Below are positions 1 through 17,174 of a stretch of 64,000 bases of DNA, in pieces (position 1 is the first letter of the stretch; every line of letters begins with the position of its first letter). The notes beneath the pieces are model-generated. The model searched no databases. It was not told where the DNA came from and saw nothing but the letters and a program-made list of their open reading frames with translations. This stretch comes from Deltaproteobacteria bacterium (lineage in GTDB: Bacteria; Desulfobacterota; Syntrophia; Syntrophales; UBA5619). Location of the stretch: the NCBI GenBank assembly GCA_021817825.1, contig JAKAFS010000006.1, forward strand, positions 1,596-65,595. Direction: 5' to 3'. Both the position numbers and the translations under genes were made by a program.

Positions 1-2
1 GG

Positions 3-269
3 ATCGTCTACGCCCTGGGAGAGGCGGGAGAGGATTCGGCGTCGCTGCGCGCGGTACTCCGCTCCCAGTACTCTCCCCTGGTGGCCTTCTGCATCATGCT
101 TTTTTGTTTGATCAGCGCCCCCTGCATGGCGACCATCGCCGTCTGCTGGCGGGAGAGCCAATCCTGGAAATGGGCGCTCTTTCAGCTGGGCGGGCTGACC
201 CTCTTGGCCTACGGGATCACCGTTTTGGTCTACCAGAGCGGCCGCCTGCTGGGTATCGGTTTGGGATAG
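3..269 (+). CDS. feoB: Ferrous iron transporter FeoB, C-terminal end (5'-truncated by window edge)
   Basis: Frame is open from position 3 (IVYALGEAGEDSASLR...) and includes F-C-L-I-S-A-P-C-M-A-T-I-A-V-C-W-R-E-S-Q-S-W-K-W, the FeoB C-terminal PC-x-AT...RE...W motif. Confidence 0.9.
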   Translation: MVYALGEAGEDSASLRAVLRSQYSPLVAFCIMLFCLISAPCMATIAVCWRESQSWKWALFQLGGLTLLAYGITVLVYQSGRLLGIGLG

Positions 270-279
270 GAGGAAGGCC

Positions 280-501
280 ATGAACGAAGATATCGTTGTT
301 GCCCTCATCGTGGCGGTGGTGCTGCTTCTCGCCCTCCGCTCTCTCTATCGGACTGTGCGCGGGAAGGGGGTGGGATGCCGCTGTGGGGGAGGCTGCCGGG
401 CGGCCGGCCCCTTGTCTCCGGGGGGCGACACTGGTGATGCAAAGGAGGCGCGAGGCGCAAAGATCGTCTGCAAAGGAACTTGTCGGGGTCTTGGTCATTA
501 A
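280..501 (+). CDS. FeoB-associated Cys-rich small membrane protein
   Basis: N-terminal TM helix then GCRCGGGC; directly after feoB; RBS AGGAGG. Confidence 0.75.
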   Translation: MNEDIVVALIVAVVLLLALRSLYRTVRGKGVGCRCGGGCRAAGPLSPGGDTGDAKEARGAKIVCKGTCRGLGH

Positions 502-554
502 TTGGAATATTACTGTTGTGTTAATAATATAGGAGATATGGAAAGGAGAGGTTT

Positions 555-1757
555 ATGAAAAAGAAGAAATGGTTGGGTGCAGTAGCGTTGCTTTTTCTGC
601 TGGCTTCCGAGCCGGCTATGGCTGACCAGGCGGTCTCGCGGGAAGAAATCGAGACCTTGAAGGAAAAACTGAAGGTGCTGGAGGAGACGGTCGGCAAGGA
701 TGCCGAGCCGCACTGGTACGACAAGATCGATCTTTCCCTCGATGCGACGGGCGTGGTCCAGGGCACCGTGGGCGTCAAGGACCGCCTCCGTTCGGGAGGC
801 GATCTTGCCAGCGGTACGCTGAATGTGGATCTGGAAGCGACGGCGCCGATCGTTCCTCGGGGATCGCTGTTCGTTCACTTCAAAGCCGGGGCCGGTAAAG
901 GGCTGGACGGCGACATCCCCTCTCTGAACGGTTTCAACAACCTGGCCGTGGACAACGACAATGCCCGGCTCTGGGAAGTGTGGTACGAGCACCGATGGCT
1001 GGATGAGAAGCTCCGGTTCCGGGTGGGAAAGGTCGATCTCACGACCGATTTCGATACGAACCGGGTGGCCAATGACGACATGGAACAGTTTCTCTCCAAG
1101 GGGTTCGTGAACAATTCGGGGGTGGAATTTCCCGATCAGAACGGTCCGGGGGCCATGCTCTGGCTGGCCCCCCATCCCCTGATCGACTTAGGCGTCGGGG
1201 TGGCCGACGCCGGCGGGAACTGGGAGAATATCGACAGGCAACCCTTCGTCATTGCCGAAATCGATTTCAAGCCGCGCCTTGGCGAACGGCAGGGCAACTA
1301 TCGCTTCTATGGCTGGTTCAACGGCAAGGACCACAGGGAACACAAGGATGCGGCGAAAACCCAGGAACCCAATGCCGGCTTCGGGTTCTCCTTCGACCAG
1401 GAACTGACCGAAGCGGTCACCGCTTTTGCCCGCTATGCCCGGCAGACGGACCGGGTGGCGACGGTGAGCGACGCCTGGAGCACGGGACTTGAAGTGAGCG
1501 GAAAATGGTATGGCCGGGAGAACGACGCCCTGGGCGCGGCCTACGGCATGGCCCTTTTAGGAAAGGATTTTGAAGCGGTCTCCCTGGCCTCGGGCATCGA
1601 TACCGGCCACGAGCAGCATGCCGAGGTCTATTACCGCTGGCGGATTCACGAACACCTGGACCTGTCCCCCCATGTGCAATGGGTGAAAAGCATCAACGGC
1701 GACCGCGACAATGCCGATGTCTGGGCCTTCGGCCTGCGGGCTCATCTGGATTTTTGA
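555..1757 (+). CDS. OprB-family (carbohydrate-selective) porin, possibly an iron-uptake porin
   Basis: Signal peptide, short coiled coil, RFRVGKVD...FD.N..AND...QF motif, C-terminal GLRAHLDF beta-strand ending in Phe. Confidence 0.85.
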   Translation: MKKKKWLGAVALLFLLASEPAMADQAVSREEIETLKEKLKVLEETVGKDAEPHWYDKIDLSLDATGVVQGTVGVKDRLRSGGDLASGTLNVDLEATAPIVPRGSLFVHFKAGAGKGLDGDIPSLNGFNNLAVDNDNARLWEVWYEHRWLDEKLRFRVGKVDLTTDFDTNRVANDDMEQFLSKGFVNNSGVEFPDQNGPGAMLWLAPHPLIDLGVGVADAGGNWENIDRQPFVIAEIDFKPRLGERQGNYRFYGWFNGKDHREHKDAAKTQEPNAGFGFSFDQELTEAVTAFARYARQTDRVATVSDAWSTGLEVSGKWYGRENDALGAAYGMALLGKDFEAVSLASGIDTGHEQHAEVYYRWRIHEHLDLSPHVQWVKSINGDRDNADVWAFGLRAHLDF

Positions 1758-1813
1758 TGGCCCTCCAGCACCCGGGGCCCCCGTCGTTGCGGGGAGAGAT
1801 GCGTTTTAGAACG

Positions 1814-1847
1814 GACAAAGGGGTATCTCCCGGGATGCCCCTTTGTC
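1814..1847 (+). terminator. Stem-loop downstream of porin gene
   Basis: GACAAAGGGGTATC-tcccgg-GATGCCCCTTTGTC inverted repeat; no strong U-tract. Confidence 0.55.
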
Positions 1848-2054
1848 GTCTCAGCATGGCCGCATCAAAGCAACCGATGGGCAAAGGCGATCGGCGAATT
1901 GCCGTTTTGCCCGATGCTAGCTAACCCGACGACCATGCGGACAGGTTGTCGCGCCGCTGCGGAAAGGATATCTGGGCAAGCAAGGACCGGCATTGCGATG
2001 GCTGCCCGTGGGGAGCGGACAAAGGGGCGCGGGATTGGCGGAGCCCTTTTTTTC

Positions 2055-2083
2055 TTGACAAATTAAACAAGGTAAAATATTAT
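2055..2083 (+). promoter_or_regulatory. Sigma-70 promoter for the riboswitch/TerC transcript
   Basis: TTGACA (2055-2060), 17-bp spacer, TATTAT (2078-2083), immediately upstream of the riboswitch. Confidence 0.8.
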
Positions 2084-2090
2084 ATAAATT

Positions 2091-2194
2091 ATAAAGGGGA
2101 GTAGTTATCGGTCAGTGGAAAACCGACCCGGATTCCGTCAAGACGGTCGAAAGACCCGGACCCGGGGCAGATTTCTTGCCAACAAGACCTTTAT
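2091..2194 (+). ncRNA. yybP-ykoY manganese riboswitch aptamer
   Basis: P1 ATAAAGG...CCTTTAT flanking the hallmark GGGGAGTAG, CGTCA and CAAGACC segments; precedes a TerC-family gene, the typical target. Confidence 0.88.
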
Positions 2195-2227
2195 CCAGGC
2201 AACGGTGCCACGGGTAAAGGTTTTTTA
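2188..2227 (+). terminator. Riboswitch-controlled intrinsic terminator (expression platform)
   Basis: CCTTTATCC...GGGTAAAGG stem followed by TTTTTT; its 5' arm is shared with the 3' strand of aptamer P1. Confidence 0.8.
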
Positions 2228-2262
2228 TTGCCCGGCGGCGCCCAAATCAAGGAGGGAGTCTT

Positions 2263-2997
2263 GTGATCGATTTAGGCTGGCTGGGGCAGATTGCGTTGAC
2301 AGGGGAATTTCTTACGGCGGTGATGAGCATCGTCCTCATCGATCTGGTGCTGGCGGGCGACAATGCCGTGGTGATCGCCATGGCAGTCAAAAACCTTCCC
2401 GGCAGGCAGCGCCTCTGGGGGATCGCCCTGGGATCGGGAGGCGCCGTCCTGATTCGGGTGGCCTGCACTTTCCTGGTGGCCCAGCTGCTGAACATGCAGT
2501 TCATCAAGCTGGTAGGCGGGGTGGTGATCATCTGGATTGCGGTCAAGCTTCTGACCGAAGGAGCCAAGGAAAAGGGTTCTTGCCGGGAGTGCGGAAGCCT
2601 CTGGCAGGCATTATGGATCATCATCGTGGCGGACATGAGCATGGGTATCGACAACATGCTCGCCGTCGGCGCTGCCAGCAAGGGCAATCTCTTCCTGCTC
2701 CTCTTTGGCCTCATGCTCTCGATCCCCCTGGTGGTGTTCATGAGCAACCTGCTTTCCAGACTGATGGATCGGTATCCGCTCATCCTCTGGGCCGGTGCGG
2801 CGATTCTGGGAAAAGTGGGCGGGGAGATGATCATTACCGATCCCTGGGTTCGCAGCCTACTGAACCCGCCCCTGTGGGTCGAGTATGCCGTGATGGCCCT
2901 CTTTGTCGCCTTTGTCTGCGGGCTGAGCAAGTGGATCGCCACTCGCTCCCGGGGCTCCCTTCCGGAACAGGACGCTGCCGTGGAGGAGGGGGCTTGA
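2263..2997 (+). CDS. TerC-family (YjbE/Alx-like) membrane protein, putative Mn exporter
   Basis: IDLVLAGDNAVVIA and IIVADMSMGIDNMLAV motifs; multiple TM helices; GTG start with AGGAGG RBS. Confidence 0.92.
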   Translation: MIDLGWLGQIALTGEFLTAVMSIVLIDLVLAGDNAVVIAMAVKNLPGRQRLWGIALGSGGAVLIRVACTFLVAQLLNMQFIKLVGGVVIIWIAVKLLTEGAKEKGSCRECGSLWQALWIIIVADMSMGIDNMLAVGAASKGNLFLLLFGLMLSIPLVVFMSNLLSRLMDRYPLILWAGAAILGKVGGEMIITDPWVRSLLNPPLWVEYAVMALFVAFVCGLSKWIATRSRGSLPEQDAAVEEGA

Positions 2998-3094
2998 TGA
3001 TCCCGAAGGGCTGAGAAGGACAAAAAAGGGATTCGCGCGCTATTTTGCAAGGGTGATGGAGAAATGAACGATATTTTTTAACGGAGGCAGCGGA

Positions 3095-3523
3095 ATGAAA
3101 AGACAGATGGTCAAGGTACTTGCGGTCATGGCGGTTGTGATGTTGATGGGCATGACCGTCCTGGAGTTGAGCGCCCAGGCAAGGGTCGGAGGCGGACGGT
3201 CTTTCGGCAGCCGTGGTTCGCGCAGCTATTCGACTCCGGCCGGCCCTTCTGCCCAGCAGAGCCAGTCGCGGCAGCCGTACGCGGCACCGAACGCCGCCCA
3301 GCCGCGAACCGGCGGAGGCTTTATGAGCGGCATTGCCGGCGGGATGATGGGCGGTATGCTGGGAAGCATGCTGTTTAGCGGCGTTGCCGGCGCCGGCAAT
3401 ACCCCGGGAGCCGCTTCCGGCTCCGGGATCGGCCTGCTGGAAATAGTGCTCCTGGCAGGCGCAGGCTATCTTCTCTACAGGGTTATCAGGAAAAAAAGGG
3501 CGGACGATTCCTCCCTGCGATAG
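3095..3523 (+). CDS. Gly-rich exported/membrane protein resembling the N-terminal half of bacterial Tim44-domain proteins (Tim44 domain absent)
   Basis: Signal peptide, ARVGGGRSFGSRGSRSYS, GG-rich segment, TM helix GLLEIVLLAGAGYLLYR, then stop. Confidence 0.65.
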   Translation: MKRQMVKVLAVMAVVMLMGMTVLELSAQARVGGGRSFGSRGSRSYSTPAGPSAQQSQSRQPYAAPNAAQPRTGGGFMSGIAGGMMGGMLGSMLFSGVAGAGNTPGAASGSGIGLLEIVLLAGAGYLLYRVIRKKRADDSSLR

Positions 3524-3824
3524 AGGCCGAGTACCGCCGGTGCGAGAGGGCCCGCATTCCCACCCCCCTGGGGGTGTGGGCCTCCTTGCCCCGGCGTCGA
3601 ACCTTCCCGCATCGATCTTGCGGGTCCCTTCCCTCCCGGCAGTGCCTCCCGTAAAAGCGGCCTGCCGCCACCATCCCGATGAACCTCTCAGTGAGAGCCG
3701 ATCAACCGGCCGCCGGCAGGGGTTATTGAACGTCGGCAGGCGATATGCTATGGGTATTCGCTCAGAAGATAACGGGGTCGCCGGGCCAGTAAATCGGTTA
3801 TTTACGGATCAGCGGAGATATCGG

Positions 3825-4169
3825 ATGAAGAAGAGGATTTCGCTCATGTTGCCCATCGTCCTTACGGCTGCGGTTGTCGCCTGCGAAGCCTCAGCGGCCA
3901 CGCTCGACGTGCGGAGCGGTTGCGGGGCAGCGGTTCCGGTCTCCGTCTATGGGGAATCTTACAGTACCCCGCTCGTGACGCAGCAGGTCTGGATGAACCA
4001 GCCGTGGCAAACCACCGTGAATCCCTGTCCCAGCCGCATCGGCGTGGATGTCTCGAAGTCAGCGTCAGCGAGCAGCGTCCGGTTTTTCTATCCTTCAGTC
4101 TGCAAGACCATGCTGGTCACCATCAAGGACGGCTCTCCCGATTGCTCGGTGGAGTTCTCGGAGAAATAG
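3825..4169 (+). CDS. Small secreted Cys-containing protein (114 aa), unknown function
   Basis: GGAG RBS, MKKR signal peptide ending ASA; 4 Cys in the mature part. Confidence 0.75.
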   Translation: MKKRISLMLPIVLTAAVVACEASAATLDVRSGCGAAVPVSVYGESYSTPLVTQQVWMNQPWQTTVNPCPSRIGVDVSKSASASSVRFFYPSVCKTMLVTIKDGSPDCSVEFSEK

Positions 4170-4454
4170 ACGACGACGACGAGAGCTTCCTGAACCATCT
4201 GCCCGGCAATGCCTCAACCCTTCCCTTTGCCAGTGGGACAGGGTGCCAACGTTTGTTGGCACCCTGTCCACCCAGTGGGCGGGCCGGAAGCAGAGAGGAA
4301 AAAGAATATCCTTGCAAAATCCTTTAGATACAATATATCTTCCCTGGCACGATTGCTGAATAGGATATCGTCAGTGTGACTCATTCCGGGCTGCGTCACG
4401 CCGGAAGGAAGGGCGGGAAAAGCGCGGAAGAGGTCTTGAAAAAAGGAGCGAACG

Positions 4455-4910
4455 ATGAAAAAAGCATTGAAAGTGTTCATGATGGTGGGATTAGGCGCCG
4501 TTATTCTGCTGGGTAAGGGCAGTCTGCCGGGCGGCACCGACCGTTGGTTCGGTCTTTTTTCCGCCAGTTCCGCTCATGCCGGGGGCATTTGCTTCAATTA
4601 TACGGCAGAAAAAAGAAATGCGGTGACCACGTGGTGCCGGGACAGCCAGTGCAGTTCCGAATGCTCGGGACAGGCAGCCGGTTGCCTTGCGGACTGCCAA
4701 AAAGGGTGTAACCGGTTTGTCGAAAATTTGCCCAAAGGCCCCTGGCTCGCAGGTCAATGCCATCTCGACGAGGACCAACTCGACACTGCGGATACGGCCT
4801 GTAGCGCCTCGTGCCAAACCGGCTACCCCGGTTCCGTTGCCAACGTGAAGAATTGCCAGCGCGGGTGCGAAGCTTACCGGCTCGGGTTATTCCAGAAGCG
4901 CGGCTTATAG
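4455..4910 (+). CDS. Small secreted Cys-rich protein (151 aa, 12 Cys) with repeated CxxxC motifs
   Basis: AAGGAG RBS, MKKALKVFMM leader ending AHA; CSSEC, CLADCQKGC, CSASC, CQRGC. Confidence 0.8.
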   Translation: MKKALKVFMMVGLGAVILLGKGSLPGGTDRWFGLFSASSAHAGGICFNYTAEKRNAVTTWCRDSQCSSECSGQAAGCLADCQKGCNRFVENLPKGPWLAGQCHLDEDQLDTADTACSASCQTGYPGSVANVKNCQRGCEAYRLGLFQKRGL

Positions 4911-5029
4911 AAGGGATCGGAAGAGTTGGCCCCCGGTCCGCTCGGGATAAGCGTTTATTCAGGTGCCCTATGCCGGTGAATGAGACCCGGTCGGCCCGCT
5001 GTTCATGGAAAAAGAAGGGAGAAATCGAC

Positions 5030-5347
5030 ATGCCCATCACGAAACCGATTAGAATGGTCTTGATCCTGGCCGCCGCCCTTTTCGGATTGACCGTCGCCCC
5101 GCCGCAACCCCACGCGGCCGTCAACCAGGGGTACATCGCCTATTTCAACACCGGCTGTGCAGCCGCCACCGGGGGGGTGAGCGACCCCCAGTACCTTTCC
5201 TGCGGCGGCGTGGCCTGGGCCCTGTCCAGCGGCGGCAAATGGAAAGCGCCTTTCCAGGAGGACTGCAACGCCGCCTGCGCAAAGACCTATACGAACGAGA
5301 CCCAGCGGACCAAATGCACGAACGCCTGTTTCCGGCTGACCTTGTAA
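5030..5347 (+). CDS. Small secreted Cys-rich protein (105 aa, 6 Cys)
   Basis: GGGAG RBS, signal peptide ending PHA; YFNTGC...CNAAC-x12-CTNAC. Confidence 0.8.
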   Translation: MPITKPIRMVLILAAALFGLTVAPPQPHAAVNQGYIAYFNTGCAAATGGVSDPQYLSCGGVAWALSSGGKWKAPFQEDCNAACAKTYTNETQRTKCTNACFRLTL

Positions 5348-5427
5348 ATCGCTCCGCCCAAGGATGGGGAAACGTTGCGCCATCCCCGGGCCAGCCGGAA
5401 ACGAGGAGATCCAGAGGAGAGAGGGAG

Positions 5428-5751
5428 ATGGAGATGACGAAAAAGCAACTGAAGGTATTCCTGATGGGGGCGGCAGCCCTTTTCTGCCTGATCGCCGGTC
5501 CCCTGCCGGCCTCTGCGGCAGTCACCAACAGCGCGGCCTATTATTTCAACACGATCTGTGAAAGCGCCGCCGCGGGGCCTGAGGAAAAGACCGCCTGCCG
5601 TTCGCTCGCCCAGAGCATCGAGGCCAATAAAGCCTCCTTCACACCGATCTGTAACGACATGTGCAAGGCCTTCTACGGACAACCGACCCAAATCAACGCT
5701 TTTAACACATGCCAGAGCGGCTGCCTCGCCCTGACCGGGACCGCCTATTGA
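5428..5751 (+). CDS. Small secreted Cys-rich protein (107 aa, 6 Cys in mature part), paralog of 5030-5347
   Basis: GGAG RBS, signal peptide ending ASA; YFNTIC...CNDMC-x15-CQSGC. Confidence 0.8.
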   Translation: MEMTKKQLKVFLMGAAALFCLIAGPLPASAAVTNSAAYYFNTICESAAAGPEEKTACRSLAQSIEANKASFTPICNDMCKAFYGQPTQINAFNTCQSGCLALTGTAY

Positions 5752-5826
5752 GCTTCGGGCAGCAATGGGGCATTTCCCCGGTATAATGCCGAAAAGGGAT
5801 GATATGCATACTTTATGGAGGAAAGG

Positions 5827-6258
5827 ATGATGAAAAAAGTCTGGCTCACGACGTTGCTTTGGGGGGCGCTTCTGCTTGCAGCTGCCACCGCGTCGGCGGC
5901 GGATCATACCTGGAAGGTGACCCTGCCCGCTGATCTGCCCTTCAACCACTGCCACATCTTTTTTGAAAACGACGGCGGTTCCGATGTGGGCGAAAAAGAG
6001 ATCGCCACCGGGAGTTCGGCAAGCTGGGGAGCCAAGACCCCCCTCAGCTATATCAGCGGCAATTGCAATGTTCTCAATCCGGGCGGAAATCAAGTATGGC
6101 GATTGCAGAGCCGGACCTGCACCGGCGTCGATTTTACCAGCGGCGTAGAGGGCGGGATTCGTTGCGAAACAAAGCTTCTGAGGCTGAAGATCTGCCCCAA
6201 GGTAGCGCTGCCCGTTGCCTTTCCCCGTGATTACCAGTATGGTTTCTGTGATGAATGA
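5827..6258 (+). CDS. Small secreted Cys-rich protein (6 Cys, beta-rich), unknown function
   Basis: GGAGG RBS, MMKKVW signal peptide ending ASA; alternative start 5815. Confidence 0.8.
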   Translation: MMKKVWLTTLLWGALLLAAATASAADHTWKVTLPADLPFNHCHIFFENDGGSDVGEKEIATGSSASWGAKTPLSYISGNCNVLNPGGNQVWRLQSRTCTGVDFTSGVEGGIRCETKLLRLKICPKVALPVAFPRDYQYGFCDE

Positions 6259-6418
6259 AAGCGGTTGCCAAACCCGGCGCCGGGTAAACGGCCCGGGCCT
6301 GACGGCTGGTGGTTGGCACCGGCGGCGATTCATCGCGCTTTACATGGTTGTTGAGAATCTCAGATGGTCATCCTGAGGTTCGGCTATTCTTTAACGATTA
6401 AGATTCAGGAGGATCCAC

Positions 6419-6721
6419 ATGGTCATCGTCATCGCCAAGATCGCAGTCCAACCGGGGAAGAAGCAGGAAGTCTTTGCCCTTGCCCAAACCATCATCGCCG
6501 CCACCCGAACCGAGGAGGGGTGCATCAGCTATGAACTTCTCGACGATCCCCAGGACGCCGGCGCCTGCTCCTTTGTGGAGCGCTGGACGGACATGGACGC
6601 CCTGAAGCGCCACATGAAAACCGATCACTTCCTGAAGTGGCGCGAGGCCTCGCAGGGCCTGCTCATTGCCGGCCGGGACCAGGTCGGGATTTACCAGGCC
6701 GAAGCGTTGAAGCGGGGTTAG
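6419..6721 (+). CDS. Antibiotic biosynthesis monooxygenase (ABM)/putative quinol monooxygenase
   Basis: TRTEEGCISYEL...FVERW...ALKRHMKTDHF; 100 aa; AGGAGG RBS. Confidence 0.88.
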   Translation: MVIVIAKIAVQPGKKQEVFALAQTIIAATRTEEGCISYELLDDPQDAGACSFVERWTDMDALKRHMKTDHFLKWREASQGLLIAGRDQVGIYQAEALKRG

Positions 6722-6874
6722 GCCAGCCCTTCCGGGATGGGGCCGGTGGGCGGGCCGTTCAACCGGCGCTCCCGCCCCGCCGCCGACTCTGTGAGCCGGC
6801 AGTGCAATCGGTATTTGACAGGGATGCCCGATCTGCATATACTCCGCCATCAAATTTGTTGCGATGGTTCCCTG

Positions 6875-8044
6875 ATGTCCATTTATTTTACGCTGCTCCA
6901 GGCGTTCCTGTTAGGCACCGGCATGAAGACCGGCCGGGTGGTTTTTACCTTATATGCATTGAAGATGGGGGCGCAGCCCTTTACCGTCGGCCTCCTGATG
7001 GCGATGTCCGAGGTGCTGCCCACATTGCTGGCCTGGCATGCCGGCCGCTTGGCCGACCGCTTCGGCTGCCGCTGGCTGCTCATGGTCAGCGCCGGCGCCG
7101 GGGCGTTGGGGATGCTGATCTCCTATCTCATCCCCAGTCTGGCCGCCCTTTTTGCCACCGCGGTTCTCTATGGCTTGATGTCGGCCTTTTACGGGGCTCC
7201 CGTGCAAAACCTGGTGGGCCTACAGAGCGGGCCGCAGGACAGGGCCCGGAATTTCAGCAATTTCAGTTTGGTGACCTCTTGCACCGGCTTGCTGGGACCG
7301 CTCCTGGCCGGTTTCACGCTGGACCATGCCGGTCCGGAGGTGGCCTGCCTAGGGCTGGTGCTGCTCTTTCTGGCGGCAATCGTGGTGCTCGTCGTCTGGG
7401 GGGGGAAGCTGCCCAGCGGCACACGGACCACCAAGCCCACGGGAAGCGTCCGCGTCCTGCTTTCCGAATCGGGTCTCTGGCGGGTGATGGCCACGAGCAG
7501 CCTGGTGATTACCGGCGTCGACCTCTTCCAGGTCTTCATGCCGATCTACGGCCACAGCATCGGACTGTCCGCGTCGGCGATCGGCATCATCCTGGCGATA
7601 TACGCCTCGGCGGCCTTCGTGGTCCGCTTCTTTATGCCCACCCTGATCAGGCGATTGACCATCGAACGGCTGCTGGCCTACTCTTTTCTCATCGGAGCGG
7701 CAGGCTTCCTGCTCGTGCCCTTTTTCAAAAGCATCGTCGTTCTTTCGCTGGTTTCCTTCTTCTTCGGACTCGGGATGGGGCTCGGCCAGCCGCTGACCAT
7801 CATGATGACCTTCAGCAATTCCAGCCAGGGACGCTCCGGAGAGGCGATGGGATTGCGGGTGACGGTCAACAACATCACCCGCATGGCCAGTCAGGTCTTG
7901 TTCGGATCGATCGGTTCCGCCTTCGGCGTCTTTCCCGTATTTTGGGTCAATGCGCTCCTGCTGGCCTCGGGATGGGCGGTCAGCCATCCGCGTGCCGCCG
8001 CCCCCGCCGCCGTCGCTGACAAGGACGAGCAGAAGGATTCCTGA
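6875..8044 (+). CDS. MFS transporter
   Basis: About 12 TM segments; motif A GRLADRFGCR; start uncertain. Confidence 0.88.
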   Translation: MSIYFTLLQAFLLGTGMKTGRVVFTLYALKMGAQPFTVGLLMAMSEVLPTLLAWHAGRLADRFGCRWLLMVSAGAGALGMLISYLIPSLAALFATAVLYGLMSAFYGAPVQNLVGLQSGPQDRARNFSNFSLVTSCTGLLGPLLAGFTLDHAGPEVACLGLVLLFLAAIVVLVVWGGKLPSGTRTTKPTGSVRVLLSESGLWRVMATSSLVITGVDLFQVFMPIYGHSIGLSASAIGIILAIYASAAFVVRFFMPTLIRRLTIERLLAYSFLIGAAGFLLVPFFKSIVVLSLVSFFFGLGMGLGQPLTIMMTFSNSSQGRSGEAMGLRVTVNNITRMASQVLFGSIGSAFGVFPVFWVNALLLASGWAVSHPRAAAPAAVADKDEQKDS

Positions 8045-8157
8045 CCCGCTCCCGGTTTGGGTCGGGGGAGGGGGCCGGCTCCCGGGGGTGCCGAATGGGC
8101 ATTCAGGGTTGCCGTGCCGGCGTGATCCTGCGAATGGGTCACCGCCGTGGGGCTTCT

Positions 8158-8937
8158 CTAGTTGAACAGGTAGCGGATCCCGGCAAAGACCCCCTGGAAG
8201 CGGAGGGGCGCCCAGGTCTGGTCGACATCGAACCCCGCAGGGACATTGTTTGCGGAGGCCCGGCCCGCATCGGCAGAGACGCGGCCGAGGTCCGCATACC
8301 GGTAGGAGAGGTCCAGGACGGTCCGTTCCGACAATGCGATCCCCATTCCGATGCCGGCCATCCAGGCGATATCGGTCTTGTTTCCGCCCGGGGTGATGGT
8401 CACCTTGTGCGCTCCGGGGTTGCCGGGAAAGAGATAGGTGACATCGCCCAGTTGGTTGTAGCTGGCCCCGATGCCTCCTCCCAGGTAAGGCTGGAAGCGG
8501 CCGCTGTTCAGACCGAACAACGGCGCCACATCGCAAAAGAGATTGACCATTCCCGTCAGCGCATCGGCGCGGGCCGACACCGGCTGATCGCCCGGCACGC
8601 CCCGGAAATTCGCCTGGCCGCGATACTGCATGTCGGGCCGGTAGTGGACGGCAAATTCGGTTCGCAGCCAGGGAAGAAGCTGCTTGCCCGCAGCCGCCTC
8701 GATGGAGGGAAAACGGCCGAAATCGCCGTAGGCGCCGATCTGGCGTCCGTCGCGTCCGGGACCGGTGCCGAAGAGGGCCGGCGGGTTCTGGGCGGTGGAT
8801 TCCCGGTCGGAAAAGTCGCCGGCCAGGGACCATTCGAATCCCAGTCCTCCGCGCATATACCAGCCGGCGGCGCCGGCGGGGGCGGCGGAACTGGAGAGGA
8901 AGAGCACGGCCAAGAGCAGGAGAAGTAATTTTTTCAT
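8158..8937 (-). CDS. Outer-membrane beta-barrel protein (opacity/OmpA-like porin family)
   Basis: MKKLLLLL signal peptide; FQPYLGGGIG, LDLSYRYADLG, C-terminal GIRYLFN. Confidence 0.82.
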   Translation of the reverse strand: MKKLLLLLLAVLFLSSSAAPAGAAGWYMRGGLGFEWSLAGDFSDRESTAQNPPALFGTGPGRDGRQIGAYGDFGRFPSIEAAAGKQLLPWLRTEFAVHYRPDMQYRGQANFRGVPGDQPVSARADALTGMVNLFCDVAPLFGLNSGRFQPYLGGGIGASYNQLGDVTYLFPGNPGAHKVTITPGGNKTDIAWMAGIGMGIALSERTVLDLSYRYADLGRVSADAGRASANNVPAGFDVDQTWAPLRFQGVFAGIRYLFN

Positions 8938-9037
8938 CGGTTTTGTCACATTCCTTTCAGTTGGAATCCCTCGATCCGTTTTGCTGGTCCTGCCGGTCAG
9001 AATGGAAATGGCGCCTTGGCAGAAGAAGGGACGTCCT

Positions 9038-9691
9038 CTAGCGGTTCCCGTAGAGGTTGTTTTTGACGATGTAATGGCGGACCGCCTCGGGGACGAGGTA
9101 GTGGATCGATTTCCCTTCGCCGGCCCGCTTGCGGATGTTGCTCGACGAAATGTCGAGGAAGGTGACTTCGCGGAAATAGAGGCAGTGGCCCGTTGTGCTG
9201 CGGTATCCCTGCGCCTCTTCGTCATAGGTAAAGTGTGCGGCGAACTCGGGGGGCAGGATGTCAGTGAGCCCCCGGCTGACGTAGCCCGGACGGGTCATGA
9301 CGGCGAAGTTGCAGAGCAGCAGCAGCCGCTCCCAGTCCTTCCAGGATCGGATGGCATGGAAGGCGTCCTGGCCGAGAATGAAGTAGAGTTCGAGATCTTC
9401 CAGCCGGTACTTGTCCAGCAGGTACTCGACGGTTTCCACCGAGTAGGAGGTTCCGCCCCGCCGGTTCTCCACGTCGGAGAAGGAAAAGGCCGGATTGTCC
9501 TCGATGGCCTGGCGGATCATCTGTTCGCGATGGTAGAAGGGGGTCACGGCCGCATCGATCTTGTGGGGCGGCTTGGCTGCGGGAACGAAGATGATCCGGT
9601 TGAGATCGAAGAGCTCCATCACTTCTTGGGCGCAGCGCAGATGCCCGATGTGGATCGGATCGAAGGTGCCCCCGAACAGCCCCCACTTCAT
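9038..9691 (-). CDS. nadD: Nicotinate-nucleotide adenylyltransferase
   Basis: [15 protein letters not shown] (HIGH), [13 protein letters not shown]. Confidence 0.96.
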
Positions 9692-10962
9692 GTGCGTACC
9701 TGACCGTTTCCGTAGATGATGAACTTCGTGGTCGTCAGCTCTTCGAGCCCCATGGGGCCGAAGGCGTGAAGCTTGGTCGTGCTGATGCCGATCTCCGCCC
9801 CGAGCCCGAGCTCGAAGCCGTCGTTGAACCGCGTCGAGGCGTTGACCAGGACGGCCGAGGAGTTGACCTCCCTAAGGAAGCGCTGGGCCCGCTCGTAATG
9901 CTCCGTGACGATCGCCTCGGTGTGGAGGGAGCTGTAGCGTTCGATGTGGGCGATCGCCTCGTCGAGATCCCGGACCACCCGGACCGCCAGGATCAGCGCC
10001 AGATATTCCCGGCCCCAGTCCTCCTCGGTGGCCGCTTCGGCCTGGGGCAAAATCGCCCGCGTCCGCTCGCAGCCTCTCAAAACCACCCCGGCTTTGCCCA
10101 GCGCCTCGGCCACGACGGGCAGGAAGGCCGGCGCGACCGCCTCATGGACGAGCAGCGTCTCCATGGCGTTGCAGACGCCGGGGCGCTGCGTCTTGGCATT
10201 CAGGCAGATCTTGACGGCCTTGGCGAAATCCGCCGTTTCATCCACGAAGGTATGGCAGATCCCTTTGTAGTGCTTGATCACCGGGATCTTCGAGTCCCGG
10301 ACCACGGCGCGGATCAGCTCCTCCCCGCCGCGGGGGATGATGACGTCAATGAATTCCTCCAACTGGAGCAGCGCGTGGATCGCCTCGCGGTCGGTGATCG
10401 GGATCAGTTGGATCGCCTGCTCCGGGATCGCCAGCTCCCGGAGGACCTGCTGGAGGATGGCGGCCAGCGTGCGATTGGAATGGATCGCCTCGGAGCCGCC
10501 CCGGAGGATGACGGCATTGCCCGATTTGAGACACAACGCCGCCGCGTCCACGGTGACGTTGGGTCGCGATTCGTAGATGATGCCGATGACGCCGAGGGGA
10601 ATCCGCATCCGGCCGACGACGAGGCCGTTGGGCCGTTGCGAAAGCCCCAGCACCCGGCCCACCGGATCGGGCAGGGCGGCCACTTCGGCGAGCCCCCGGG
10701 CCATCCCTTGGATGGTGGCCTCGGTCAGCGTGAGCCGGTCGAGCATCGCCGGGGAAAGGCCGTTCCGGCGCGCCTGATCGAGGTCCCGGCTGTTTTCCGC
10801 GATGAGCAGCGCTTGATTGGCCAAAAGGGCCTCCGCCATAGTGCCCAATGCCCGGTTCTTGAGGTCCGTGGAGACCCGGGACAGGAGCGCCGAAGCCTGC
10901 CGGGCCTGGCGGCCTATCTGGGCGATCTGTGCAGCGATATCGGTCATCCGTTCCATCCTCAT
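9688..10962 (-). CDS. proA: Gamma-glutamyl phosphate reductase
   Basis: [49 protein letters not shown]; start may be 10947. Confidence 0.97.
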
Positions 10963-11204
10963 TTTGCAGCCGGGCGAAGGGTCGCGAGGCCCGCCTCCTT
11001 TTGCAAAGTAACTATTGACAAATCCAATGGGTTTCGTATAAGAACGCCCATCATTCCGGGGCGAGCGGCGTCAATTTACAGGACTCGGGGAAGCCTGTCA
11101 AGGCCATTCGCCGGGCCTTTTGCACCGGGGAAGGGCTCCGGGGCGCGCCATTTCACGTTCCCGGACCAGCGCGGCGGGAGATTTCACCCCAAAGGAAACA
11201 AACG

Positions 11205-12272
11205 ATGGACGCCATCCGTGTCAAGGCGGGCCGACGGGCCTATGAACTCATCCGCGCAGGCGGTTTCACCCTGGACCAGATCGGGACCTATTTCGGTCCG
11301 GCAGGAGGCCCGCGGTGGCTGGTGGCCAGCGGCTTCGATCTGACTCTATTGGAAGGCGGCCTGCTGGGGAACCGGTATCCCGTCTGGCTCGTCGGCGCGT
11401 CTGCCGGGGCCTGGCGTTTCGCGGCCTGGCTGCAACCGGGGGCGGCCGAGAGCTACCGCGCCTTGCGGGAAGCATACATCACCAGCGTCTACACTCGCAA
11501 AGACACACCGCAGACGATCCGGCAGTCCCTCGTCGATATCGTCAACACCTATGTCGAGGATGACGCGCTTCCCTTTGCCCTGGCCAACAAGAAGTACCGT
11601 CTGGCGATCCTGACCAGCCGGGTCGGCCACCTGATGGCCTCCGAACGCCCCTGGGTGCAGAAGGCGGGATTTGCCTTCTGCTTTCTGGCAAACGCGCTGC
11701 ACCCGGCGCTGATCCATCGGCTGGCCGAGCGGGTCGTCTTCTACTACGGTCCCAAGCCGCCCGATTTCTGCCTGCGGCCGGGATTCAAGGGCAGCTACAT
11801 CCCCCTTTCGGAGATCAATTTCAAAGCCGCGGTCATCGCCTCCGGGGCGATTCCCATTGCGATCGAAGGGGTGCCGGACATCTTCGGCGCGCCGCGCGGC
11901 GTCTATCGGGACGGCGGGCTCATCGACTACCATCTTCGGGAGAACTACGAGACGCGCAACGGCGGGCTGACCCTCTTTTTTCACCATCAGGAACGGATCA
12001 TTCCCGGCTGGATGGATAAAAGGCTCAAGAAACGTCGTCCTCCCGAGTCGGCGCTGGAATCGGTCGTCATGGTCACTCCGTCCGAGGAATTCGTTGCCCG
12101 GCTTCCCGGCGGCCGGATACCGGACCGCACCGATTTTACGACCTTCATGGACGATCCGGCGACCCGGATCGCCCAGTGGCGAAAAGCGGTCGAGTTGTCC
12201 GCCCCGCTCGGCGAGGCGTTTCTGGAATTGATCGCCAGCGGTCGCATCAAGGACGTGGTTGCCAAACTGTAA
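11205..12272 (+). CDS. Patatin-like phospholipase/esterase
   Basis: Gly-rich GPAGGPRW, nucleophile elbow GASAG, DGG motif (YRDGGLIDYH). Confidence 0.82.
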   Translation: MDAIRVKAGRRAYELIRAGGFTLDQIGTYFGPAGGPRWLVASGFDLTLLEGGLLGNRYPVWLVGASAGAWRFAAWLQPGAAESYRALREAYITSVYTRKDTPQTIRQSLVDIVNTYVEDDALPFALANKKYRLAILTSRVGHLMASERPWVQKAGFAFCFLANALHPALIHRLAERVVFYYGPKPPDFCLRPGFKGSYIPLSEINFKAAVIASGAIPIAIEGVPDIFGAPRGVYRDGGLIDYHLRENYETRNGGLTLFFHHQERIIPGWMDKRLKKRRPPESALESVVMVTPSEEFVARLPGGRIPDRTDFTTFMDDPATRIAQWRKAVELSAPLGEAFLELIASGRIKDVVAKL

Positions 12273-12291
12273 GGCCTGAAAGGGGAAAGAG

Positions 12292-12516
12292 ATGTCCGAC
12301 TTCACCGGCCTGGGGAAAATACTGCTCGTGATCGGCCTGGTCGTTGCGGGACTCGGGCTCCTCCTGCTGCTGGCCGGAAAGATCCCCTGGGTCGGGAGAC
12401 TGCCCGGCGACTTTCTTTTCAAGGGCAAGCATGTCACCTTCTATTTCCCCTTGATGACCTCGCTGGTCGTCAGCATCATCCTGACCATCGTCCTTTGGTT
12501 CATCAACCGCCGCTAA
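12292..12516 (+). CDS. DUF2905 family small membrane protein
   Basis: GRLPGDF...FYFPLMTSLVVSIILT signature. Confidence 0.88.
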   Translation: MSDFTGLGKILLVIGLVVAGLGLLLLLAGKIPWVGRLPGDFLFKGKHVTFYFPLMTSLVVSIILTIVLWFINRR

Positions 12517-12566
12517 GGACCGCCGAGGGCTGCGTCACCGGCCATTTTTCAAAAGGAGGCAACCCG

Positions 12567-15308
12567 ATGAAACGATGGCTTGTTATGGTTCCGATCTTAG
12601 GCCTCCTGTTCATGCCGCCGGGGATCGCCTCCGCCGCCGTTCTCAGCCCGACCTACGCCGAATCCCTGCCACTGGCCATCGACCATGCCGCCAACCCCGC
12701 CGGTTGGACCACTGCCTCGCTCTTCGTCATTCCCGACGGGGGCGGGGCCGAAGGGCTGGTCTATGACGGCGGAAAACTGGTCGTCCGGACGGCAACGAAA
12801 TCCAGGAATTTCAAAACGAACTATGTGGGCCAGGCGGGCTACAAGATCTACGGGCCGGCGACGTCCGAGGCGGCCTGGGTGACCACCGGCAACGACGCCA
12901 CCCGCTTTCTGCTCGCCAACGGCGTCACGGGCGCCAATGTGACGACTCTTCTGGAGCGGGGCCTCGGGATGGACGCCACGGGGACCCACGACGCCATCGT
13001 CGAATATGCCGTCGATCCGCAGTATCTCCTGCGGCCGACGCGCAACCCCGACATCACCCAGGTCTTGCCGGCGCAGTACGGGACGAATCTGCCCTTCGTC
13101 AAGCCGGCCGGGATGAGCGATGCGGCCTTCGCCAACTTCAAGGCCTACTATGCCCACTGGCTGGCCGGCGCCTACGGTCCCTACGCCTTTCCCTGGACCC
13201 AGCTCGGTTACACCTTCTTCTGGGGAAACGGCACCTCGCTTACCCAGATCAACGGGATGAGCGAGTTCATCATCCTGGGGCAGAGCCCTGTGGACATCAC
13301 CGGCATCTATGCCACCGGCTCCTATATCTACACCCGGAACAACGGCACGGCCTTCAGCACCGCCGCCGGCGCCTCCTACGGCAACGGCTTTGCCAGCTTC
13401 AAGATCGACGGGACCTGCGACACCCTCTGGGCGGGCCACCGGTTCCAGAAAAACGTCCGGACGGCCAGCGGGACGCCCAACCAGGTGATCATCGAAAGCA
13501 ACGGGAGCCTCTCCGGCGGCCAGGGACTCCTGATCTGGTCGCTCAACTACGACGTCGTCAACAACGGCACGATCAGCGGCGCAACGGTTGACAAATACGG
13601 TCTCGCCGGGACGGCGAACATCGCCGTTCTTTTCAAGGGCGATACGAGCGGCGCTTACGGGACTCCCATTACCACCGCCGGCGCAGTCAACCGCCTCACC
13701 AACAGCGGGACCCTCTCCAGCCCCGGAACGGCGGTCAAGGCCGAGGCGGGAAACACCGTCGTCATCAACAACGCCGGCGGCCTCATCTCCGGCGGGGTCT
13801 ATGCGATCCAGACCGGGGCCGGCGACGATACGGTGACCCTCAACGGCGGCGAGATCGCCGGGCGCACCGATCTGGGGGCGGGGACCGATGCGCTCACGGT
13901 CACGGGAGCGAACCACGCCCGTTTTTCTTTTACCCTGGATACGGACAACGCCTCTTTGCCCCAGGTCGTCAACACCGAGACAGTCACGATCGCCGATAAC
14001 AGCGCGACCCTGGCCGTGCAAGCGACCGGTCGGCGGAACGTCCGGAGCAACGACCGGTTCCTCATCGTCGATGCGACCACCCTTTTTGTCGATCCGGCGA
14101 AACTGACGATCGACAGCGCCCTGCCCATGGTCGCCTTTGCGGCCCAAAAGACGGGAAACCAGCTGGCCCTTGTGGCGGCGCGCAACGCGACCTACTATGG
14201 CCGGAACGCGACGAATCCCTCCTTGGGCGCGGTCCTCGACGCCCTGGGCAACACCGCCTCGGGGGACATGGCTTTGGCCCTCGGGGCCCTCGACCGTTCC
14301 GGCGATCCGGCCGGCAACGCCGCCAAGCTGGAGCCGGTCGTCAACGGGGGAATGGTTCAGACTGGGTTCGGGACGGCCGGACGGTTCACCCAATCCATCG
14401 TCAACCGGATCGGCCAGGTCCTGGCGAGCCATGATACGGGGAGCGGTGTGACGGGCATCGCGGCCGGCGACGAGCCGGCCCGGGAAGGGGTCTGGGGGCA
14501 GGGGTTCGGCGCCGCCTTGCGCCAGGAGCCGCGAGAGGGGAGCGACGGCTATCGGGCGAGCCTCTGGGGCAGCTCCTTCGGCTACGACCGGTTCGTCTTT
14601 CCCCGCCTGCTTCTGGGGTTCGGCGGCGGCTATGGCCGCACGGCCATCACGACCGGCGACCGTCGGACGAGGACCGATGTGGACCACTATCAGGGGAGTC
14701 TCTACGGGAGCCTGACGGGGGAGGGCTATTATCTCGACGGTCTCCTTTCCGTTGCCTACAGCCAGTATGACGCCGCGCGGCATATCGCATTCGACGCGAT
14801 CGACCGGGTCGCAAAAGGGGATTATGCGGGACGGCAGGTGAACGGCTATCTGGAAGGGGGCTATACTTTCGAAAAGGGCGGCTTTGCCGTCACCCCGCTC
14901 CTTTCGCTCCAGGCCCTGCGGCTCCATGTCAACGACTACCGGGAAACGGGGGCCGTCGACCTCGACCTGACCGTGGAAGCCCAGGACTATAACCTTTTTC
15001 AAACGGGCCTCGGGGCCAAGGTGGCCTATCCGATCCAGGGGCGCGAGTTGAGGATCACCCCGGAATTCCATGCCCGGTGGCTCCACGACTTCGCCGGCGA
15101 CCGCCAGCAAACGACCGCCCGGTTTGCCGGCGGCGGCACGGCCTTCGCGACCCAGGGTTGCGAGCCGGCCCGGGACAGCTTCAACGTCGGCGTGAAGCTG
15201 ACCCTGATGACCAAAGACCGGGTGACGGTCTCGCTGAACTATGACTTGGAAAGAAAAACGGACTTCTCCGGCCACAGCGGCACCGTTCATCTCCGCTATG
15301 CCTTCTAG
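12567..15308 (+). CDS. Autotransporter with uncharacterised N-terminal passenger domain
   Basis: AGGAGG RBS, signal peptide, Gly/Asn/Thr-rich beta-helix-like region, C-terminal beta-barrel (VWGQGFG...LRYAF). Confidence 0.9.
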   Translation: MKRWLVMVPILGLLFMPPGIASAAVLSPTYAESLPLAIDHAANPAGWTTASLFVIPDGGGAEGLVYDGGKLVVRTATKSRNFKTNYVGQAGYKIYGPATSEAAWVTTGNDATRFLLANGVTGANVTTLLERGLGMDATGTHDAIVEYAVDPQYLLRPTRNPDITQVLPAQYGTNLPFVKPAGMSDAAFANFKAYYAHWLAGAYGPYAFPWTQLGYTFFWGNGTSLTQINGMSEFIILGQSPVDITGIYATGSYIYTRNNGTAFSTAAGASYGNGFASFKIDGTCDTLWAGHRFQKNVRTASGTPNQVIIESNGSLSGGQGLLIWSLNYDVVNNGTISGATVDKYGLAGTANIAVLFKGDTSGAYGTPITTAGAVNRLTNSGTLSSPGTAVKAEAGNTVVINNAGGLISGGVYAIQTGAGDDTVTLNGGEIAGRTDLGAGTDALTVTGANHARFSFTLDTDNASLPQVVNTETVTIADNSATLAVQATGRRNVRSNDRFLIVDATTLFVDPAKLTIDSALPMVAFAAQKTGNQLALVAARNATYYGRNATNPSLGAVLDALGNTASGDMALALGALDRSGDPAGNAAKLEPVVNGGMVQTGFGTAGRFTQSIVNRIGQVLASHDTGSGVTGIAAGDEPAREGVWGQGFGAALRQEPREGSDGYRASLWGSSFGYDRFVFPRLLLGFGGGYGRTAITTGDRRTRTDVDHYQGSLYGSLTGEGYYLDGLLSVAYSQYDAARHIAFDAIDRVAKGDYAGRQVNGYLEGGYTFEKGGFAVTPLLSLQALRLHVNDYRETGAVDLDLTVEAQDYNLFQTGLGAKVAYPIQGRELRITPEFHARWLHDFAGDRQQTTARFAGGGTAFATQGCEPARDSFNVGVKLTLMTKDRVTVSLNYDLERKTDFSGHSGTVHLRYAF

Positions 15309-15542
15309 AAGAGAGTTCCTGATTCCCCTGGTGAAATACGCTGCCCACGCCGAGGGCTGGCGCGATCGGCGGCGATCGCTCCTGGCGCTGCCGTTCTGTT
15401 CGTCACCGTAAAGGGCAAACAGGGTTCGGCGGCTCGACGGTCGCTGTTAACGCCCTCTTCGGAGAGGACCGCCGGGTATAGGAAGGAAGAGATCAAGCCG
15501 ACGGAGGGACCGGAGCGGATCCGGAAGGCAACGGAAAGGGGG

Positions 15543-16493: not shown

Positions 16494-16511
16494 AGGCGCG
16501 AAGGAGAGGGG

Positions 16512-17174
16512 TTACCGATCGAGGATCGGACCGTCCAGATCGCCTGCCTGGCTGTAGCCCGACCGTTCCCAGTAGCCCCGGTAGTTTGTGTTCCTGGACA
16601 GCTCGATCCGCACGATCCAGCGCGCCCACTTGTAGCCCCATTTGTCCTGCGCCACGAGAATGAACGGATAGCCCTGCTCTTTCGGCAGGGTGAGGCCGTT
16701 GATCCGATCGGCGATGATCAGGTCCCGTGCCAGGACCTCCTTGAGCGGCAGCGAGGTGTCGTAGCCGTCGGCGCAGTGGAAGACGACGGTGACGGCTTCG
16801 GGTTTGGGCGGCGCCGCCTTGAGGAGTTCTCTGAGGGGGATCCCTTCCCAGAGGGCCTTGACGGTCCAGCCCTCGACGCAGTTGAGCTCGATCAGCCGCT
16901 TTGTGTGCGGCATTTTCTGGAGTTCGCCGTAGCTGAAGGCCGCTTTTTTTTCCGTCAGCCCATCGATCAACAGGCGATACTTTCCGATATCGACGGCCGG
17001 GGCGCCTTGGATCGAGTTCTCGTGGAAGTCGGTAACGGAACCGAGCTTTTGCCCCTCGTATTCCCTGATTTCGACAGCCTTCAACGGTTGGGGCGCGGCG
17101 GCCAACAGGGGTGCGGGTCCGGCGGCGCTGACCATCGTTCCCAGCAGCAGGCAGAGCCAGTGTTTTGCAGTCAT
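16512..17174 (-). CDS. Molybdopterin-dependent oxidoreductase (sulfite oxidase family, MsrP/YuiH-like)
   Basis: LNCVEGW Mo-ligating Cys motif, QGYPFILV, KWGYKWARWI, GYWERSGY; alternative start 17192. Confidence 0.88.
   Translation of the reverse strand: MTAKHWLCLLLGTMVSAAGPAPLLAAAPQPLKAVEIREYEGQKLGSVTDFHENSIQGAPAVDIGKYRLLIDGLTEKKAAFSYGELQKMPHTKRLIELNCVEGWTVKALWEGIPLRELLKAAPPKPEAVTVVFHCADGYDTSLPLKEVLARDLIIADRINGLTLPKEQGYPFILVAQDKWGYKWARWIVRIELSRNTNYRGYWERSGYSQAGDLDGPILDR

Follow-up and report, generated by a model that had tools for sequence, protein, structure and literature searches.

We have analyzed a window of 64,000 nucleotides (nt) from the genome of a Deltaproteobacteria bacterium of the order Syntrophales (assembly GCA_021817825.1, contig JAKAFS010000006.1, positions 1,596 to 65,595). 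The subject is an array of five small genes located on the forward strand between positions 3825 and 6258 of this window, here called P1 to P5, that code for small exported proteins rich in cysteine. Positions given alone refer to the window, and those preceded by the name of a contig (C40, C110 and so on) refer to other contigs of the same genome. The genes, as delimited by open reading frames (ORFs) and their translation, together with a repeat found between the first two of them, are as follows.

3825-4169, forward strand: P1 (P0001), 114 amino acids
4236-4269, forward strand: perfect inverted repeat of 15 bp with a 4-nt loop (repeat I3, found by a repeat search), 67 nt after the stop of P1
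4455-4910, forward strand: P2 (P0002), 151 amino acids
5030-5347, forward strand: P3 (P0003), 105 amino acids
5428-5751, forward strand: P4 (P0004), 107 amino acids
5827-6258, forward strand: P5 (P0005), 143 amino acids, with an alternative start at 5815

The five ORFs are real genes. A previous inspection of this DNA, made from its letters alone and referred to here as the sequence-only reading, had described five consecutive genes on this strand, each with its own ribosome binding site, and both points were borne out. We scored the ORFs with a codon model for which 728 long ORFs of this genome served as the training set, the scores being log-likelihood ratios per codon. In all five cases the ORF was the top-scoring one of its own six frames, with values of 0.09 (P1), 0.06 (P2), 0.31 (P3), 0.30 (P4) and 0.19 (P5), the genome value being 0.37 +/- 0.20. 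The scores of P1 and P2 are low, and these two genes are therefore atypical in their codon use. The G+C content at third codon positions of the five ORFs was between 0.64 and 0.84. A Shine-Dalgarno-like motif of the GGAG, AGGAG or GGGAG type was present 5-12 nt upstream of each of the five ATG codons, and the intergenic gaps from P2 to P3, P3 to P4 and P4 to P5 measured 75-119 nt. We have also considered that some of these ORFs could have arisen by chance in intergenic DNA of high GC content, or could be what is left of genes in decay. The low codon scores of P1 and P2 would fit this, as would the presence of a 348-amino-acid antisense ORF covering 5287-6333, the lack of close relatives of P4 among 5.8 billion clusters and the position of P3, alone in its own 90% cluster. 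However, all five are still the best frame and the long antisense ORFs score below zero (-0.03 and -0.20). Besides, P2 and P5 have conserved homologs, and the full-length paralogs of P1, P3 and P4 keep the signal peptide and the cysteine pattern. We regard non-coding origin as highly improbable. No contig matching 3500-6800 was found in the metatranscriptomes of two runs of the same study, a result that says nothing either way about expression. A scan for promoters and terminators over 3000-7000 gave counts no higher than in shuffled sequence, and an Rfam scan of 1-12000 gave zero matches.

The export signals were assigned by visual inspection, with the help of a crude script. Cleavage sites of the AxA type, as had been claimed for the whole array, were read in P1 (ASA/A, the stroke marking the point of cleavage), P3 (PHA/A), P4 (ASA/A) and P5 (ASA/A). 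The claim fits P2 less well, as it has an AHA/GG site 42 residues in, about 20 residues past the hydrophobic core, and its homologs have N-termini that are longer still. Therefore P2 could be anchored, and judging from these N-termini it may be a membrane-anchored protein rather than a cleaved one. We found no twin-arginine motif in the five N-termini, and Sec export of unfolded chains is therefore expected; by eye the five signals were read as Sec-type. The mature proteins contain 4, 12, 6, 6 and 6 cysteines from P1 to P5, exactly the even numbers given by the sequence-only reading. Zero CxxCH motifs, our test for multihaem cytochromes c, appeared in the five sequences, again as described before. 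The mature proteins are near neutral, with isoelectric points (pI) of 5.0-8.3, and poor in histidine and methionine. That no recognisable domain is present was confirmed by scans of P1 to P5 with Pfam and NCBIfam, which gave zero matches above cut-off; the same scans of every member of the P5 and P2 alignments were also empty. Searching the sequences of the PDB with four family profiles at E<=10 returned nothing meaningful.

The sequence comparison identifies P3 and P4 as tandem paralogs. Their mature parts have 76 and 77 amino acids with six cysteines each, arranged in P3 as C, C, CX3C, CX3C, and they share 33% identity (E-value 3e-11). Even at the DNA level, a 36-nt repeat (5141-5176 and 5542-5577, 78% identical) spans the YFNTxC motif of both. 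The hidden Markov model of the family detected four members in the genome, namely P3, P4, C40:26352-26651 and C110:8976-9275 (E-value 2e-8), the last with seven cysteines in its mature part. Beyond this genome the distribution of the family is very narrow. A profile search over 1.84 billion representatives returned only P0003, P0004 and P0012, a word-based search of 5.8 billion clusters with P4 found P4 itself alone, and P4 was not found in any of 40 relatives, of which 14 were from the genus, 10 from the family and 16 from the order. P0012, a solo gene on one 2.3-kb contig, is thus the only relative of the P3/P4 family that the 1.84 billion representatives gave outside the genome. It is 67% identical to the C40 paralog, with which it aligns without gaps over 99 codons, all six cysteines being kept. 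The differences between both were even across codon positions, with a dN/dS of 0.52. This indicates fast evolution and agrees, as far as the helical family is concerned, with the diversification proposed by the sequence-only reading.

The AlphaFold2 (AF2) model of P4, obtained from a four-sequence alignment, has helices at residues 28-47, 51-66, 68-83 and 86-105 and a mean predicted local distance difference test (pLDDT) score of 61. Helix 68-83 contains C75xxxC79 and helix 86-105 contains C95xxxC99, a motif that is invariant in the four sequences of the family. P4 is thus predicted to have four helices, i.e. two hairpins stapled by disulfides. Helical hairpins with twin CX3C motifs are known from the small Tim proteins of mitochondria and from the alpha-hairpinin peptides of plants. 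As in these, CX3C-loop-CX3C is carried on consecutive helices by P3 and P4, and by P2 in its C-terminal half, an arrangement that can form a two-rung disulfide ladder, the connectivity being in our case one that we infer. Unlike them, P2 to P4 are bacterial, have signals that read as Sec-type, and are longer, as they have at least four helices and one more stapled hairpin. No sequence relation of P2 to P4 with the small Tim or alpha-hairpinin families was detectable and no Pfam family scored above cut-off; therefore the likeness is one of design only. Our literature searches found nothing on bacterial families of periplasmic four-helix CX3C proteins, nor families of small secreted cysteine-rich proteins of this kind in Syntrophus, Smithella or Syntrophales.

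P2 has a C-terminal domain of about 109 amino acids with 12 cysteines in the order C..C, CX3C, CX3CX3C, C, CX3C, CX3C. Two homologs were found in metagenomes, P0006 (59% identity) and P0007 (49%), and all 12 cysteines are invariant in them, as is C116xxxC120 ... C134xxxC138 in the three sequences of the family. P0016, encoded on a 21.7-kb contig, was also placed in the P2 family. P2 is single-copy in its genome, and a metagenome scan with the family gave 408 pattern matches, none of them confirmed. The Atlas model of P2 is helical, with a predicted template modelling (pTM) score of 0.65. Residues 97-140 gave a sub-threshold match to BSMAP (PF12280; E-value 0.004, 17.7 bits for a cut-off of 25). 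It was the only sequence match for any of the five proteins, and one of the three members of the P2 family produced it at E<=0.1. In structure, too, the Atlas model came closest to a TMEM59-like/BSMAP cluster, with a template modelling (TM) score of 0.47 by query. The weak match and this neighbour liken P2 to the N-terminal cysteine-rich helical domain of BSMAP/TMEM59. However, BSMAP/TMEM59 is an animal membrane protein family, P2 remains below the Pfam cut-off and a TM under 0.5 is weak. With 17.7 bits under a cut-off of 25, one matching member in three and a TM of 0.47, the likeness is most likely that of a common pattern of cysteine-stapled hairpins and not one of descent. A literature search on TMEM59 gave no useful result.

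P1, with a mature part of about 90 amino acids and four cysteines, is probably a small beta-sandwich to judge from its Atlas model, which is beta (pTM 0.61) and has small beta-sandwich hypothetical proteins as structural neighbours. Two paralogs are present in the genome, C83:4520-4864 (38% identity, E-value 4e-16, the four cysteines kept) and C173:45860-46240 (E-value 2.7e-11, two cysteines). There is one likely distant relative within the order, and a search of 400 other genomes drawn from the phylum did not find the family (E<=1e-4). Lipoproteins are recognised by a lipobox, [LVI][ASTVI][GAS]C, following the h-region of the signal. Residues 17-20 of P1 read VVAC, which is lipobox-like, and are followed by EASA/A; this cysteine is absent from the three aligned relatives of P1, and the AxA site is retained in them. 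Downstream of P1, the region 4225-4290 that includes the inverted repeat folds with -38.7 kcal/mol (z -4.1), and none of 200 shuffled sequences folded as well. The hairpin has no run of T, and because of this lack of a T tail the terminator scan did not call it. It may act as a transcript end or as a stabiliser between P1 and P2.

P5 is the best represented of the five. Its mature part has 119 amino acids and six cysteines, its homologs P0008-P0011 have identities of 49-73% (71-73% for P0008 and P0009), and two clear paralogs are found in the genome (C47:13808 and C110:4925). Of 300 other genomes belonging to the order, 10 contained relatives of P5, eight of them in one family of 78, and the named records come from metagenome-assembled genomes of Smithellaceae and Syntrophaceae, order Syntrophales. 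In the alignment of 14 sequences four of the six cysteine columns are invariant and the other two at least 90% conserved, and there is a C-terminal GFCP motif. A scan of P5-family loci gave five loci for the Smithellaceae-type subgroup and nothing for the close P5 subgroup. The AF2 model obtained from this alignment is, with good confidence, a beta-sandwich (pLDDT 83, pTM 0.74), and P5 is predicted to be an immunoglobulin (Ig)-like beta-sandwich. The best match of the model with VIA was 2mca (Z 7.7, root mean square deviation 2.8, 95 residues aligned), and the best Foldseek E-value was 3.9e-3. In size and fold P5 resembles generic Ig-like and transthyretin-like sandwiches, such as 2mca itself (uncharacterised, from Eubacterium rectale), TssJ of the type VI secretion system or domain 4 of the cholesterol-dependent cytolysins. 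However, the identities are 4-12%, and the six conserved cysteines and the GFCP motif have no counterpart in them. The matches are generic and none stands out, so that no function can be transferred. In another genome of the order (locus L016, G209:C53, 45-2940), a P5-family gene is accompanied by three more small exported ORFs, of which two have eight cysteines.

The comparison among the five proteins indicates that they are not one family. P1 and P5 showed no similarity (E-value 2.0), P2 and P3 gave no alignment, and when the P3/P4 family was compared to the P2 family with hhalign the probability was 5.7%, involving only the last CX3C hairpin. With this value of 5.7% we make no claim of homology between the P2 and P3/P4 families and regard their likeness as one of design. 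The array is made of three unrelated families: P1 (beta), P2 to P4 (an all-helical architecture) and P5 (the predicted Ig-like beta-sandwich). Every family except that of P2 has extra copies scattered in the same genome. At the three paralog loci of this genome and on the contig of P0012 the neighbourhoods are unrelated and the genes usually solo, and P5-family genes at nine other loci are found beside uvrB, acyl-CoA and other unrelated genes. The array is not one dedicated system. The notion of one diversifying cassette put forward by the sequence-only reading had therefore to be abandoned, given three unrelated architectures, members that are solo elsewhere and the failure to find P4 in the 40 relatives. 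A different way of seeing the five as a unit would be a single envelope assembly, i.e. partners of one periplasmic or surface structure expressed from one operon. The common strand and the short gaps of 75-119 nt from P2 to P5 are in line with it, and members of the CX3C and P5 families occur within about 4 kb on contig C110. But a strong hairpin separates P1 from P2, the families occur separately elsewhere and the array was not found in relatives (P4 in 0 of 40), and we consider such an assembly very unlikely.

What the genes do share is a tendency to be found together with others of similar kind. With a crude gene caller, which wrongly added a neighbouring gene for an ABM-domain protein to the run of this array, and an equally crude signal rule, 91 of 3407 genes were small, exported, soluble and with at least two cysteines. 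There were three runs of at least three such genes (this array, C110 and C127), the expectation being 0.05, and runs of at least five never appeared in 2000 shuffles. The clustering of genes for small exported cysteine proteins is not due to chance. The G+C content of the islands is 0.546-0.581, and that of the genome 0.598. The one on contig C110 (locus L040, about 4900-17100, G+C 0.546) is a second and larger island. It contains the P5 paralog (4925-5368) and, about 4 kb apart, the CX3C-family paralog (8976-9275), along with around ten other small exported ORFs with cysteines. Among its genes are tandem pairs coding for proteins of about 100 amino acids (14235-14543 with 14645-14953, and 16228-16533 with 16684-17013). 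To judge from the L016 locus, such islands may be more widespread in the order. In the present genome, C127 (7916-11279) and C187 (4461-8832) also have runs of genes, on both strands, for small exported proteins that contain 4-8 cysteines.

How the cysteines are used is suggested by their position in relation to the helices. In the P4 model C44 and C57 are symmetric about the turn between helices 1 and 2 (residues 48-50), and C75/C99 and C79/C95 share residue 87 as their centre, next to the turn between helices 3 and 4. Such positions suggest three staples, a single one in the first predicted hairpin and two in the second, where they would form a ladder of two rungs. A similar arrangement can be proposed for P2, in which six cysteine pairs would each be symmetric about a likely turn, among them the PKGP and GYPGS stretches. 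The cysteine numbers were even in the five proteins and in all the relatives checked but one (C110:8976-9275, with seven). The genome also has candidates for the machinery required. At C161:44908-46900 (locus L036) an exported CPPC protein of the thioredoxin fold (Thioredoxin_4, 39.2 bits) is located beside a VKOR-like membrane protein. DsbB was not found in the genome. The DsbA-like and VKOR-like proteins are probably an oxidative-folding pair, here in a strict anaerobe. When the five genes were excluded, exported proteins with 2-7 cysteines had even numbers in 48 cases and odd in 13, compared to 690 and 553 for non-exported proteins (Fisher p 3e-4). A bias to even cysteine numbers goes together with the presence of DsbA plus DsbB or VKOR (PMC12453122). 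Taken together, the cysteines of the array probably form structural disulfides, with the connectivity that we infer from the turns. Of the uses mentioned by the sequence-only reading, disulfide stabilisation is the one better supported, by the conserved cysteines, the turn symmetry, the DsbA-like/VKOR-like pair and the even-cysteine bias. At the same C161 locus, a cation-efflux transporter of the CDF family lies in a row with the DsbA-like and VKOR-like genes, on one strand.

We think it fairly probable that the five are exported disulfide proteins, belonging to three lineage-restricted families that reside in islands of small-protein genes, and not the components of one system. In the model that we propose, the five would be exported through their Sec-type signals and would receive structural disulfides from the DsbA-like/VKOR-like pair. 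P1 and P5 would be compact beta-sandwich modules, and P2 to P4 helical bundles made of helix-turn-helix hairpins, stapled across the turns by single cysteine pairs and by CX3C...CX3C two-rung ladders. By their fold class, they could serve as stable non-enzymatic modules for binding or scaffolding in the periplasm or at the cell surface. For the helical proteins the likeliest working principle would be a small helical box, locked by disulfides, in which a ligand is carried or shielded. The genes would then be accessory ones that evolve fast and do not belong to a pathway, three families of them coinciding in one of several islands.

Several observations weigh against this interpretation. The P4 model, with its pLDDT of 61 and four-sequence alignment, is of low confidence, and the VKOR-like protein scored 26.6 bits, just under the Pfam cut-off of 27.5. 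Obligate anaerobes often make few disulfides, a subject also dealt with in PMC12453122. The signal-peptide rule behind the even-cysteine bias is home-made, and the cut of at least two cysteines was chosen after seeing the data, once it was realised that single-cysteine proteins dominated the odd class. Actually, with all non-zero cysteine numbers the strict signal rule gave 57 even and 59 odd, and a first, looser rule 284 even and 339 odd. Given the post-hoc cut and the lack of bias in these wider counts, the support that even numbers provide is moderate. Finally, the role is deduced only from the fold class, and all the structural matches are within the range expected for common folds.

If the interpretation is true, three undescribed exported disulfide families of very narrow distribution are added to an uncultured lineage of Syntrophales, one of them being a bacterial version, with signal peptide, of the CX3C-stapled hairpin design that is better known from mitochondria and plants. 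It would also suggest that envelope proteins undergo oxidative folding in a strict anaerobe and that small exported proteins are kept in few fast-evolving genomic islands. The data could be of use to annotate the hypothetical secretome of syntrophs and to pick stable scaffolds for miniproteins. No new pathway or defence system is revealed. The array had been singled out as the best candidate of the window for an undescribed system, and what it has provided is new orphan families, with no dedicated system shown.

The other roles that have to be weighed are metal binding and antagonism. P2 to P4 could be thiolate metal buffers binding Cu(I), Cd, Zn or Hg in the periplasm, as small Sec-exported analogues of the Csp proteins. 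The P4 model would resemble Csp1 and Csp3 (DUF326) in its predicted bundle of four helices (pLDDT 61), with cysteines on every helix and two CXXXC (CX3C) motifs. When P4 was compared with Foldseek, Csp1, Csp3, Ccsp or the related PA2107 headed the list and took eight of its first ten rows, all with E-values of at least 0.89, the value of Csp3 itself, and the VIA comparison with Csp1 gave a Z of 6.2. The Csps bind Cu(I) through CXXXC motifs of a single helix, have 13-19 cysteines lining the whole core and, when exported, carry predicted Tat (twin-arginine translocation) signals (PMC5171941). The 12 cysteines in 109 residues of P2 come near the 13 of MtCsp1. The only run containing this DNA, which may be the source sample, is labelled as mine drainage metagenome, and FeoB, a FeoB-associated cysteine-rich protein and a TerC/YjbE-type transporter are neighbours of the array. 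However, DUF326/Csp (PF03860) was not matched by P2 to P4 even at E<=1, and the profiles of the P2 and P3/P4 families found no Csp when searched at E<=10 in the sequences of the PDB. The cysteines of P3 and P4 are only six, with a single one on each of helices 1 and 2, and no RR motif is present here. The cysteines are even in number (with the exception of the relative that has seven) and pair symmetrically across turns, and the mature proteins are poor in histidine and methionine. The scores of the structural matches do not rise above the noise level of helical bundles, the Z of 6.2 being equalled by many unrelated ones, and other members of the families are not beside metal genes. We find this role unlikely. 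A broader version, in which P2 to P4 would be new Sec-exported cysteine-lined helical metal buffers, convergent with the Csps in miniature, and the islands a wider extracellular repertoire facing metals or partners, seems quite unlikely to us. Of the metal chelation suggested by the sequence-only reading only weak hints remain, the metal-related neighbours being found at this locus alone among the loci inspected.

Secreted antagonists or inhibitors, i.e. disulfide-rich toxins, bacteriocin-like peptides or enzyme inhibitors directed against competitors or foreign hydrolases, would agree with proteins that are small, exported and disulfide-rich. They would also agree with the restriction of the families to a lineage, the tandem duplication of P3/P4 and the dN/dS of 0.52 in the CX3C family. 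Besides, plant invertase and pectin methylesterase inhibitors, which are secreted four-helix bundles with disulfides, are among the VIA matches of P4, with Z values of 7.0 (1rj1), 6.5 (1xg2_B) and 6.1 (1x8z). But these matches are at the noise level for helical bundles, scores that unrelated bundles also reach; there is no sequence similarity between P4 and the inhibitors, and the cysteine pattern differs. Within 1-12000 we found neither an immunity gene nor a modifying enzyme, and no dedicated exporter of the ABC or peptidase kind. The sequence-only reading had already noticed that such genes are not adjacent, and this is correct for those classes, with the addition that an ABM-domain gene and a transporter of the major facilitator superfamily (MFS) do follow on the same strand. 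The signals are Sec-type as read, without double-glycine leaders, the pI values of 5.0-8.3 do not correspond to amphipathic-cationic peptides, and the paralogs and homologs are solo beside housekeeping genes. An antagonistic role thus appears quite improbable, and the suggestion of antagonistic peptides is not sustained by the near-neutral pI, the Sec-type signals as read and the lack of an exporter or immunity partner. Structural disulfides in three narrowly distributed families remain the interpretation that we favour.

The genes located at both sides of the array are listed here; the remaining gene products in 1-12000 are an outer membrane protein, NadD and ProA.

Within 1-3000: C-terminus of FeoB, in a metal-related run
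280-501: FeoB-associated cysteine-rich membrane protein, 73 amino acids
555-1757: OprB-family porin
2263-2997: TerC/YjbE-type putative metal transporter, spanning 2263-3523 together with a Gly-rich membrane protein
6419-6721, forward strand: ABM-domain protein
6737-8044, forward strand: MFS transporter

The NCBIfam name of TerC implies a riboswitch, but neither yybP-ykoY nor any other Rfam riboswitch reached the gathering score in 1-12000. When the TerC neighbourhood was examined at five loci of the same genus, no other gene of the first 12 kb was shared, and in the absence of this synteny the insertion site of the array is not definable. Five further copies of the MFS gene exist in the genome (59-72% identity), and most of the copies adjoin genes of catabolism and of TctC-like transport. 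None of these five adjoins a gene for a small exported cysteine-rich protein, and we judged its vicinity to the array to be a coincidence. With no TerC synteny and no MFS association, the flanking genes were treated as unrelated. Upstream of one MFS paralog there is an ORF of 99 amino acids with 10 cysteines and without signal peptide (C177:47427-47726). The start of the MFS gene in the window is probably at 6875 (MSIYFTLL...), like in its five other copies, and just upstream, at 6815-6843, there is an 11/12 match to a sigma-70 promoter (TTGACA-17-TATACT).

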